DNA from: a virus
Virus genome (UHGV): UHGV-1343746
Length of the DNA: 64,000 bases
Reading direction: 5' to 3' (one strand)
Shown here: positions 10,228 through 12,195 of the stretch, piece after piece
How the letters are laid out: every line of letters begins with the position of its first letter
Position numbering within the stretch: the first letter of the stretch is position 1
Notes under the pieces: model-generated
Told to the model about the DNA's origin: nothing
Database searches by the model: none
Seen by the model: only the letters and a program-made list of their open reading frames with translations
Program-made: the position numbers and the translations under genes

Positions 10228-10390
10228 AGGTTAGTATGTTTAGCACAATTATCCTGTTTGTTTTTGTTGTTTTATCATTATCTTACTTCATAAGTAAACT
10301 TTTAAGCATAACATACAAAGCAGCCTTAGCCCTTACTCTGTTATCATTTGTAGTAAATGCAGTAGTCAGAGAATTTTTAATATAAAGTTG

Positions 10391-10418
10391 TTGACATAGA
10401 AAATTTGGTGAGTATACT
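10391..10418 (+). promoter_or_regulatory. sigma70-like promoter TTGACA-16-TATACT
   Basis: perfect -35 hexamer and near-consensus -10 directly upstream of repeat units. Confidence 0.5.
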
Positions 10419-10448
10419 GAGCAGCATAAACCAACGGGTACTCACCAG

Positions 10449-10593
10449 CATCACTTAAGAGTCTTTGAAAAGGGTTTTAAGTGATGCTCGGTAAGGTTCG
10501 GTTCGGTTGGGTGTGGTATGGTCTGGTATGGCTGGGTTGGGTCTGGTCCGGTTTGGTGAGGGTAGTTAGTCTCAGCTACATTAAAATGAGACT
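10449..10593 (+). repeat. composite repeat unit 1: 10-bp-stem hairpin, ~15 GGTNN pentamers, hairpin with conserved loop
   Basis: CATCACTTAA/TTAAGTGATG stem; GGTAA GGTTC GGTTC GGTTG GGTGT GGTAT GGTCT...; hairpin AGTCTCA/TGAGACT with loop GCTACATTAAAA. Confidence 0.6.
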
Positions 10594-10731
10594 CACCTTT
10601 TTAAAAGGTCTTTAAAGAGGGTCTTTTAATGAGGTTTCGCTAGGTAGGGTAGTGTCCGGTTGGGTCTGGTAAGGTCAGGTTAGGTAAAGTGAGGTAAGGG
10701 TGGATGGTAGTAGCCACGTTAAAAATCTACC
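10594..10731 (+). repeat. composite repeat unit 2: motif GGTCTTTAAAGAGGGTCTTTT, ~13 GGTNN pentamers, hairpin
   Basis: hairpin GGTAG/CTACC with loop TAGCCACGTTAAAAAT. Confidence 0.6.
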
Positions 10732-10807
10732 AAGTTTCTAAAGAGTCTTCTGTTGAGGGTTCTTTACAAACAACTTAACAATCAACTAAAGTGTGGAGCT
10801 AAATGCT

Positions 10808-11395
10808 ATGAAACTGTTAAATATCAAAATCACTGGCACTCGTCCTTTCCTGAGCCATGCTGATACTCTGTCAGACCCATTAAATCCTCTGACAAAGTAT
10901 CACAAGTCTCTGTCTAGTAAACGTAAAAAGACTGACGAAGACTACGCTCTCTTAGCAGAGAGTCAACTGGTAACCTCTTGTTACTACGACGAGCAACTAG
11001 GTTTTGTTATGAACGGTGAGATGATTGAGGCTTGTATCAAGTCTGGTGCAAAACTCAACAAACTTGGTAAGGTAATTGACCGAGCCATTATGCTGACAGA
11101 TGTAGTCTTCCCAATGACTATTAAGAACTGTCCAGCAAACCCACAAGAACTAGCTAAGAACCAAGACTTTATCTATGCGAAGTCTGTTAAGATTGGCACA
11201 GCACGAGTTATGAGCTACCGTCCAATCTTCCGTGACTGGTCTGTAGAGTTTGGTTTGATGTTCGATGAAGAACAAATTACCAAAGAAGAACTCTTGATGG
11301 TTCTGGAAAATGCTGGCAACCTTTGTGGTGTAGGTGATTGGCGTCCACGCTTTGGTCGTTTTTCTGTAGAAGTTATTTCAGAAGGTAATGTTTAA
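10808..11395 (+). CDS. hypothetical protein bracketed by repeat units
   Basis: track ORF 10793..11395 starts with GTG; first ATG at 10808 has GTGGAG upstream. Confidence 0.5.
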
Positions 11396-11397
11396 TT

Positions 11398-11838
11398 ATG
11401 AATACAAAAGCATTAGCAGCAAAGTTCAGTTACGGTGATACTGTATCACACTCTGAGATGGACACCTTCTTAGGTATTGTGAAGCCGACTTATCAAGGTG
11501 ACATTGTTAAGTACGAAGATGAAATGAAAGCTTACGCACTTACACGCCTAAATCGACTTGAGAAGTTTATTGAGAAGCTTCTTAAAGAAGAGAAGATTTA
11601 TCTGGTCACTTCAATGGGTGTTGGTTATCGTGTGGTGGAACCTAAACATCAAGCAACTATTGCAAAACGTAAAATGTCTAGTAAGATTGGTCGTGCTTTA
11701 AAACAAGCCACTCAAGCGATTGAGAATGTGAACACTATGGCACTTAGTCATCAAGAACGTTCACGACTGATTGAACAGCAAAACCATTTAGCTGCCATGA
11801 AAGCTAACATTAACAAGCAACGTAGAAAACCTTTCTAA
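11398..11838 (+). CDS. hypothetical protein with basic C-terminal tail
   Basis: 146-aa ORF tightly coupled to upstream ORF; C-terminus KANINKQRRKPF. Confidence 0.5.
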   Translation: MNTKALAAKFSYGDTVSHSEMDTFLGIVKPTYQGDIVKYEDEMKAYALTRLNRLEKFIEKLLKEEKIYLVTSMGVGYRVVEPKHQATIAKRKMSSKIGRALKQATQAIENVNTMALSHQERSRLIEQQNHLAAMKANINKQRRKPF

Positions 11839-11849
11839 GTTGACTAGGT

Positions 11850-11872
11850 AGCCTCTTCGGAGGCTCCTTTTT
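11850..11872 (+). terminator. rho-independent terminator
   Basis: AGCCTC-TTCG-GAGGCT stem-loop followed by CCTTTTT. Confidence 0.6.
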
Positions 11873-11981
11873 AAAAGGTCTTTAAAAGGGTCTTTTAATG
11901 AGGCTGGGTTTGGTCTGGTTCGGTGTGGCAAGGTGGGGTTAGGTATGGGTAGTTAATCGGAGCTACATAAAAATTCGATTA
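11866..11981 (+). repeat. composite repeat unit 3: motif GGTCTTTAAAAGGGTCTTTT, ~9 GGTNN pentamers, hairpin
   Basis: hairpin TAATCG/CGATTA with loop GAGCTACATAAAAAT. Confidence 0.6.
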
Positions 11982-12107
11982 CATCACTTAAGAGTCTTTG
12001 AAAAGGGTTTTTAAGTGATGTTTGGTCGGGTGTGGTTCAGTCAGGTAAGGTTGGGCGAGGTCAGGTCGGGTGCGGAAGGATGGCAGTAGCCTTATAAAAA
12101 ATCTGCC
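11982..12107 (+). repeat. composite repeat unit 4: 10-bp-stem hairpin identical to unit 1, ~12 GGTNN pentamers, hairpin
   Basis: CATCACTTAA...TTAAGTGATG; hairpin GGCAG/CTGCC with loop TAGCCTTATAAAAAAT. Confidence 0.6.
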
Positions 12108-12125
12108 AAATAAGCTATAAAATCT

Positions 12126-12155
12126 GTTGACAAGTCAGGTGTTATAGCTTATTTT
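12126..12155 (+). promoter_or_regulatory. sigma70-like promoter TTGACA-18-TATTTT
   Basis: perfect -35 and weak -10 upstream of ORF 12196. Confidence 0.4.
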
Positions 12156-12195
12156 TATACTCAAATGTATACAAAATTTTATATAGGAGGTAGTT

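Follow-up and report, generated by a model that had tools for sequence, protein, structure and literature searches.

Systems of the Viral Interference Programmable Repeat (VIPR) kind, described in two preprints of 2026 (bioRxiv 10.64898/2026.04.26.720920 and 10.64898/2026.04.26.720927), combine a minimal RAMP protein, Vipr, with guide RNAs named vrRNAs, each consisting of 9-16 YNNGG repeats and a pseudoknotted 3′ tail. According to one of these preprints, vrRNAs of ~100 nt from Escherichia phage SUSP1 and from P. fulva co-purify with Vipr, and transcription of the target is repressed. The evidence reported for SUSP1 in the two preprints comprises small RNA sequencing (sRNA-seq), vrRNA-Vipr co-purification, repression of GFP, the skip rule in vitro and defence against lambda. 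Cryo-electron microscopy (cryo-EM) of the SUSP1 system is reported to reveal a helical Vipr filament on RNA in which the protein holds each GG, and a triplex has also been solved. The SUSP1 gene downstream of vipr has been named vap1, a phage satellite is given as the natural target of the SUSP1 clade, and Vipr is argued to predate the CRISPR RAMPs. Here, we analysed a repeat-bearing region of the virus genome UHGV-1343746, within a stretch of 64,000 nucleotides (hereafter, the window). The element found there is VIPR, represented by a close member of the SUSP1 clade.

By the mechanism that the preprints show for SUSP1, and that near-identity extends to this locus, Vipr protomers would polymerise on the vrRNA, one per repeat, each of them sequestering GGY and exposing the adjacent NN dinucleotide. 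The string of NN would pair with double-stranded DNA carrying the same dinucleotides with one base skipped between them (xNNxNN...), and the R-loop triplex formed in this way would block transcription of a rival mobile element. Vap1 would strengthen the silencing.

Identity and anatomy of the locus

The window belongs to a Felix-O1-like myovirus (Felixounavirus, Sf19-like, not Suspvirus). Its repeat region is 100% identical to that of Shigella phage Sf19 and ~90% identical to the corresponding region of >100 genomes of Felixounavirus, Mooglevirus and Suspvirus; no RNA is annotated at the locus in any of them. Most probably, positions 10391-12107 hold a full VIPR locus of type II that belongs to the SUSP1 clade (we put the probability at about 0.95), with expression, processing and activity carried over from SUSP1. 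We assign it to type II VIPR because its Vipr is identical at 193 of 195 positions (99%) to the solved SUSP1 Vipr (PDB 36pp, chain 36pp_D), the same entry, named "SUSP1 Vipr protein", that is matched by a profile built from 41 Vipr homologues. The protein has the RRM core, thumb and G-loop of a minimal RAMP, with the loop sequence conserved, and stands outside the CRISPR context: neither a CRISPR array nor cas genes were found near vipr. Vap1 is 98% identical to the SUSP1 protein encoded in the same position, and its gene starts 2 nt past the vipr stop codon, as expected of a two-gene operon. The order of genes is ligase, vrRNA(s), vipr, vap1, vrRNAs. The protein identity of 98-99%, together with an identical RNA grammar, allows us to transfer the experimentally established properties of SUSP1 with high confidence.

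The initial annotation, made from the letters of the DNA, could match the repeats to no described element, VIPR having been described in 2026, and left the intervening gene pair (vipr and vap1) unlinked to the arrays. We tie the arrays to the intervening protein because unrelated viral contigs with a Vipr of 37-40% identity also have the gene flanked by same-strand GGT/GGC pentamer arrays. Pfam gave no match for vipr or vap1 among the neighbouring proteins, and no PDB entry matched Vap1; vap1 matches phrog_5926, and for the vipr/vap1 neighbourhood PHROGs give "unknown function" only. An Rfam scan, proposed earlier as a check, returned no family for 10300-12250 at E<=1; only tRNAs passed the gathering score, and no vrRNA family of Rfam 15 matched. 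There is no mention of the repeat element in the Felix O1 genome paper, and a literature search on Felixounavirus transcriptomes found nothing relevant.

A scan of the 64 kb for GGT at strict 5-nt spacing gave four clusters, every one of them on the + strand; the − strand had none, and the window holds no GGY-NN pentamer arrays other than those in Table 1. This agrees with the four composite units of the initial annotation, whose strict 5-nt period, conserved GGT and non-coding nature were likewise borne out, the units being strand-specific structured RNAs under selection. Each unit corresponds to one vrRNA, that is, a tract of about 9-15 YNNGG repeats with a pseudoknotted tail of 34 nt behind it. 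Repeats and tail together make 79-107 nt, consistent with the vrRNA length published for SUSP1 and P. fulva. A VIPR array is expected to have at least 4 (typically 9-16) YNNGG repeats, to be intergenic and to lie on the coding strand beside the flanking genes, and this is what we found. To define the repeat grammar, 77 unique arrays from 25 related loci were compared. The per-position entropy of the G, G and Y amounted to 0.73, 0.13 and 0.48 bits and that of the two N to 1.94 and 1.90 bits, and position 3 was a pyrimidine in 100% of repeats, thus indicating the conserved GGY and hypervariable NN that characterise VIPR among related loci. The number of repeats per array ranged from 5 to 18, with a median of 11.

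Four classes of 34 nt, alignable without any gap, account for all the 3′ tails; they share the structure ..[[[[..(((((((.]]]].......))))))) with 11 pairs. In the alignment 91% of cells are paired, 9 of the 11 pairs are changed on both sides, and partner-sliding controls lower the pairing to 29-41%. The stems of the terminal hairpins, AGTCTCA/TGAGACT, GGTAG/CTACC, AATCGGA/TTCGATT and GGCAG/CTGCC, differ with compensation, just as had been noticed earlier. The conserved loop described along with them is present but is more than a simple loop: the bases at its 5′ side (CTAC, CCAC, CCTT) pair with those that close the repeat tract (GTAG, GTGG, AAGG), which makes an H-type pseudoknot. The vrRNA tail is a covarying RNA pseudoknot, and the conserved hairpin and pseudoknot of VIPR tails are found here as well.

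Table 1. Features of the VIPR locus and its boundaries (positions in the window; guide dinucleotides are listed with the leading one in brackets)
Feature	Position	Strand	Details
Sigma-70-type promoter, TTGACA-16-TATACT	10391..10418	+	Consensus scan, 11/12; conserved in Felix O1 and HK3
Inverted repeat GGTGAGTA...TACTCACC	10407..10446	+	8 bp; shares bases with the -10 hexamer and the 5′ leader; also in Felix O1 and HK3
5′ hairpin, unit 1 (A type)	10449..10486	+	z -5.6; contains the GTCTTT...GGGT motif
vrRNA1 repeat tract	10487..10559	+	Leading CTC and 14 GGYNN (10490-10559), 14 perfect GGY; guide [TC] AA TC TC TG GT AT CT AT TG TG CT CC TT GA
vrRNA1 3′ tail	10560..10593	+	Pseudoknot class h1 (GGGTAGTTAGTCTCAGCTACATTAAAATGAGACT)
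5′ hairpin, unit 2 (B type)	10594..10632	+	RNA fold; consensus with A type
vrRNA2 repeat tract	10633..10697	+	13 pentamers, 10 perfect GGY; guide [GA] TT TA AG AG CC TG CT AA CA TA AA GA AA
vrRNA2 3′ tail	10698..10731	+	Pseudoknot class h2 (GGGTGGATGGTAGTAGCCACGTTAAAAATCTACC); identical tail on a satellite-borne vrRNA
Third head-like motif (AGAGTCTTCTGTTGAGGGTTCTTTAC)	10742..10767	+	Not followed by an array; lies shortly before vipr; conserved in HK3
vipr	10808..11395	+	195-aa Cas7-like RAMP protein, predicted to bind GGY of each repeat
vap1	11398..11838	+	146-aa VIPR accessory protein; identity of 143/146 with the gene that follows vipr in SUSP1
Intrinsic terminator after vap1	11850..11872	+	Scan (11850-11865); T-tract extends into the first part of the unit 3 hairpin
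5′ hairpin, unit 3 (B type)	11866..11901	+	RNA fold; consensus with A type
vrRNA3 repeat tract	11902..11946	+	9 GGYNN repeats, 9 perfect GGY; guide [GA] TG TT CT TC GT AA GG TA AT
vrRNA3 3′ tail	11947..11980	+	Pseudoknot class h3 (GGGTAGTTAATCGGAGCTACATAAAAATTCGATT)
5′ hairpin, unit 4 (A type)	11982..12020	+	RNA fold; z -4.9
vrRNA4 repeat tract	12021..12073	+	Leading TTT and 10 pentamers (12024-12073), 9 perfect GGY; guide [TT] CG GT TC CA AA TG GA CA CG GC
vrRNA4 3′ tail	12074..12107	+	Pseudoknot class h4 (GGAAGGATGGCAGTAGCCTTATAAAAAATCTGCC)
Promoter of the next operon	12127..12155	+	Consensus scan; downstream boundary of the locus

Guides, satellite targets and alternative readings

When the locus was compared by BLAST with 5,426 complete E. 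coli genomes, vrRNA-like matches were found in 141 chromosomes. The matched region is an island of ~12 kb, which sits either within yecE or in the interval from tonB to yciI and has a large serine recombinase gene and baseplate and tape-measure genes. The four guides were scanned against 11 island variants at skips of 0-3 nt, with shuffled guides as a control and a match of at least 80% of NN positions as the criterion. The results clearly showed matches for three guides, all under a 1-nt skip. For vrRNA1, 26/30 NN (87%) matched within a 92-aa open reading frame of the satellite (shuffled maximum 22); for vrRNA2, 24/28 (86%) matched upstream of a satellite helix-turn-helix gene (shuffled maximum 22); and for vrRNA4, 20/22 (91%) matched within the large serine recombinase (integrase) gene of the satellite (shuffled maximum 17). 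Skips of 0, 2 and 3 nt reached at most 21/30, 19/28 and 16/22 for the same guides, and the skipped base is codon position 3 in the vrRNA1 and vrRNA4 targets. The predicted target sites in the satellite loci are L032 11328-11372, L039 11388-11429 and L040 1883-1915. Thus, vrRNA1, vrRNA2 and vrRNA4 match a rival mobile element under a 1-nt skip, as VIPR guides should. For vrRNA3, no target above chance was found among the 11 island variants (shuffled maximum 16), and an exact scan of IMG/VR with its 18 specified bases gave 0 matches. Seven more satellite loci from IMG/VR provided no better guide matches, and BLAST with idealised vrRNA1 and vrRNA4 targets found no E. coli variant above 26/30 and 20/22, respectively. 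No self-target at 80% or more exists in the window, where the best self matches cover 63-75% of NN positions.

The same rule held for the guides of related phages. When 69 of them were compared with 18 satellite loci at skip 1, 53 reached at least 80% of NN, in comparison with 3 shuffled guides; at skips 0, 2 and 3, only 4, 5 and 5 did so. The NN positions, treated as filler by the initial annotation, are thus the guide. We infer that the best matches, imperfect as they are, probably represent the real targets. The locus would then serve as a phage weapon against a parasite that exploits the phage, island relatives being present in 568 of the 5,426 complete E. coli genomes (~10%). The guides seem to evolve by point changes and by insertions or deletions of repeats while Vipr stays at least 98% identical, as judged from related loci. 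In one related phage (locus L019, 2193-2257), the vrRNA1 variant differs from window positions 10490-10559 by the loss of one whole repeat and by three NN changes.

The satellites bear vrRNAs of their own. In the E. coli EC12 chromosome (L031, 4944-16849), the ~12-kb satellite lies in yecE and includes a non-coding stretch of 2.6 kb; its vrRNA (14914-15125) is monocistronic, with a TTGACG-17-TATAAT promoter, 11 repeats, an intrinsic terminator and no vipr gene. Such satellite-borne orphan vrRNAs, already mentioned in the VIPR paper, follow the repeat grammar of the phage units, and their h2 tail is identical (L031, 14995-15088). Unlike the phage units, they form monocistronic transcripts with a promoter and a terminator of their own, lack the phage-type 5′ hairpin and have no vipr nearby. 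Presumably, they borrow the Vipr of the helper phage.

Several points weigh against the assignment to a functional VIPR locus. The vrRNA3 and vrRNA4 units stand behind a terminator with no own promoter recognisable by the consensus scan; we infer that they are probably made by terminator read-through. No target is detectable for vrRNA3 among the island variants or in IMG/VR, the phage hosts including Shigella and the searched hosts being E. coli. The best matches of the other guides are imperfect (86-91% of NN), and none closer occurs in the 5,426 genomes. The covariation of the tails comes from four paralogous classes, which means few independent events. For the Sf19-like phage, expression, processing and activity are deduced from SUSP1 only, and the source papers on VIPR are preprints.

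Of the other explanations considered, two are highly improbable, and to about the same degree. The first regards the arrays as decoy or regulatory RNAs on a TRAP-like ring protein, or as a sponge small RNA, with the triplets as the only functional part. The median number of repeats recalls the TRAP 11-mer, and the optimal spacer between TRAP sites is 2 nt, equal to the triplet spacing of 5 nt here. However, the triplet is GGY and not (G/U)AG, so that the 9-11 (G/U)AG triplets and the MtrB ring protein of a TRAP system are both missing: the adjacent Vipr has a RAMP fold, not an MtrB-type one, and none of the eight neighbouring proteins has a TRAP/MtrB match in Pfam. The informative NN already contradicts this explanation, and the filament seen by cryo-EM is helical, with no ring. 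From the TRAP analogy of the initial annotation there remains a protein oligomer with one triplet per subunit, while the ring has to be replaced by a helical filament of a Cas7-like RAMP; the idea of a protein sponge fails too, Vipr not being a sponge target.

The second explanation is that the GG-N3-GG tracts act as two-tetrad G-quadruplexes or non-template R-loops in replication priming or transcription pausing. The arrays are indeed G-rich, confined to a single strand and placed behind a promoter, the locus adjoins DNA ligase and polymerase genes, and GG runs 3 nt apart could in principle form two-tetrad structures. Such structures do not need the pyrimidine found at position 3 of every repeat, and they leave the hypervariable, target-matching NN unexplained. 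Moreover, each GG is bound by protein in the solved complex, and Felix O1 replicates without the cassette. The quadruplex idea thus gained no support, and neither did the suggestion that the arrays are T7-type primase sites (GGGTC/TGGTC) marking an origin or a zone of lagging-strand initiation, which is less probable still. Some pentamers do read GGTC, and the phage has a T7-like polymerase and primase/helicase. Yet C occupies position 4 in 17% of repeats, under the 25% expected at random, and (G/T)(G/T)GTC is not enriched. In addition, about half of the Felix-O1-like phages are without the cassette (the leader region was found in 231 phage records and vipr in 130), and primase sites would leave both the pseudoknot of the tail and the association with Vipr unexplained.

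Functionless low-complexity repeats produced by slippage can be dismissed: although the copy number of repeats and units varies among close relatives and intergenic identity among them is 70-80% versus 98-100% for Vipr, slippage is refuted by the strict phase and position-specific conservation kept while NN changes, by the array-gene association retained in phages with a Vipr of 37-40% identity, by targets matched under one reading rule and by published experiments showing function.

Four further ideas arose from reading the sequence. They were a Chi-like or RecA-loading role of GT-rich tracts, a mobile cassette with bounding direct repeats, an R-loop or switch-region-like origin and a boxA-like antitermination signal (the head motif GTCTTTAA resembles rrn boxA); all four were given up when the PDB match and the VIPR papers accounted for the anatomy.

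5′ hairpins, transcription and related phages

A conserved head motif, GTCTTTRAAARRGGGTYTTT, precedes the repeats. It occurs four times at 3 or fewer mismatches versus 0.18 expected, and four occurrences were reached in 0 of 100 shuffles. The initial annotation had placed two of the four copies in a hairpin. In units 1 and 4 the motif indeed sits within the CATCACTTAA/TTAAGTGATG hairpin, but the restriction to these two did not hold: in all four units it forms the inner part of an RNA hairpin of 16-18 bp with G-U pairs. The fold energies on the + strand are -16.8, -12.4, -11.1 and -15.5 kcal/mol for units 1-4, and the two hairpins tested on the − strand gave -9.7 (unit 1) and -5.3 kcal/mol. 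When the A and B types of the head are aligned, a single consensus stem emerges, in which G-U pairs are kept; the loop is variable, and 4 of the 12 stem pairs are compensated between the types. In Felix O1, HK3 and Moogle, single changes in the outer stem of the A type are left uncompensated, and it is mainly the A-versus-B comparison and the fold energies that argue for the hairpin.

Tentatively, the ~38-nt hairpin located 5′ of every tract might be a maturation element splitting the multi-guide type II VIPR transcript into single vrRNAs, a role like that of the repeat hairpin in CRISPR arrays. We regard this as the likeliest role of the hairpin, although less probable than not. It is backed by the strand-specific stem shared by A and B types, by the variable loops and by the hairpin-free, monocistronic vrRNA of the satellite. 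The cutter could be RNase III, another host nuclease, or Vipr/Vap1. The main text of the VIPR preprints does not mention the 5′ hairpin.

The promoter ahead of unit 1, the terminator and the next promoter of the initial annotation were all recovered by the consensus scan. The first of these promoters presumably drives vrRNA1, vrRNA2, vipr and vap1. We do not propose an own promoter for each vrRNA because the scan found no sigma-70-like site within the head elements. The inverted repeat at 10407-10446 and the head-like motif at 10742-10767 could take part in the regulation of vipr expression.

The number of units upstream and downstream of the gene pair is 2+2 in the window, 1+3 in SUSP1, 2+3 in Moogle and dune, and 1+4 in HK3; the 1+3 vrRNAs that our parser recovers in SUSP1 equal the count in the sRNA-seq of the paper. 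The syntenic site of Felix O1 has neither vipr nor vap1 and retains one decayed unit. In its genome (L003, AF320576), positions 2950-3134 hold the promoter, one A-type hairpin, a decayed tract of 9 repeats (5 with perfect GGY) and an intact h4 tail. This unit may be a relic, or else an orphan guide that uses the Vipr of a co-infecting relative.

A distant VIPR locus, with a Vipr of 38% identity, occurs in an IMG/VR contig (L029, 3300001533_000474) at 2440-4005. Its GGC-type arrays, up to ~200 nt long, lie before vipr, between vipr and a second gene, and after the second gene. GGTTTTTT closes each array, immediately ahead of the following start codon, and the arrays are broken by two conserved structured inserts, one of them with a tRNA T-arm-like GGGTGCGAATCCC. 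Rfam gave no match, hammerhead included. Felix-O1-like sequence was also met in two records of other phages, GU169904 (Staphylococcus phage SA1), whose vipr is 99.5% identical, and MG065664 (Campylobacter phage A132), which matches the start of the locus (query 1-92, the leader and first hairpin). Both records are probably chimeric or mislabelled.

Elsewhere in the window, 24 tRNA genes are clustered on the − strand at 40189-45351, as is typical of Felix-O1-like phages. The ~1.4 kb at 55700-57100 are devoid of any obvious gene and dense in short repeats, with many copies of (C)TTAACAAG / CTAACAAG and CTATATAG, and with ACTTTTACGTT repeated 5.5 times at 56805-56864. Its possible identities are an origin, a cluster of promoters, and a packaging or terminal region.

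Comparison with known systems

VIPR constitutes a new class of RNA-guided DNA recognition with a non-contiguous code, in which two bases are read and one is skipped, and the credit for its importance belongs to the preprints of 2026. In this work, the grammar of the repeats, the pseudoknotted tail, the 1-nt skip and the satellite as target were replicated independently, by sequence comparison only, in a different set of phages, from IMG/VR and from Felix-O1-like genomes of GenBank. We also provide a guide-by-guide annotation of an Sf19-like phage, the observation that the cassette is missing in approximately half of its relatives, and a candidate maturation hairpin. Furthermore, the reading of raw sequence without tools proved able to pick out a real guide-RNA system.

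The closest relative is the type II VIPR of SUSP1. The two loci are alike in Vipr (99%), Vap1 (98%), gene order, YNNGG repeats, tail classes, satellite family and the skip of 1 nt. They differ in the arrangement of vrRNAs (1+3 in SUSP1 versus 2+2 here), in all four guides, and in the genus of the phage, Suspvirus versus Felixounavirus.

VIPR also resembles the backbone of Class 1 CRISPR-Cas complexes (Cas7/Csm3/Cmr4), which likewise places one protomer per fixed step of RNA, leaves bases periodically unpaired and carries a structured handle. The step is 5 nt in VIPR, with 3 nt sequestered and 2 read, and 6 nt in Class 1 CRISPR-Cas, with 1 nt flipped. In contrast to CRISPR-Cas, the VIPR guide is non-contiguous and hard-wired in the genome, and the system is phage-borne and aimed at other mobile elements. 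VIPR of this type has no cas1/cas2, spacer acquisition, protospacer adjacent motif or nuclease.

With the TRAP-trp leader system of Bacillus, VIPR shares a homo-oligomer that reads, on single-stranded RNA, a conserved triplet recurring at steps of about 5 nt. In TRAP, the oligomer closes into an 11-mer ring on (G/U)AG triplets, the spacers carry no information, and the result is attenuation of the bound transcript itself. VIPR, on the other hand, builds an open helical filament on GGY, and its spacers are the guide, acting in trans on DNA.

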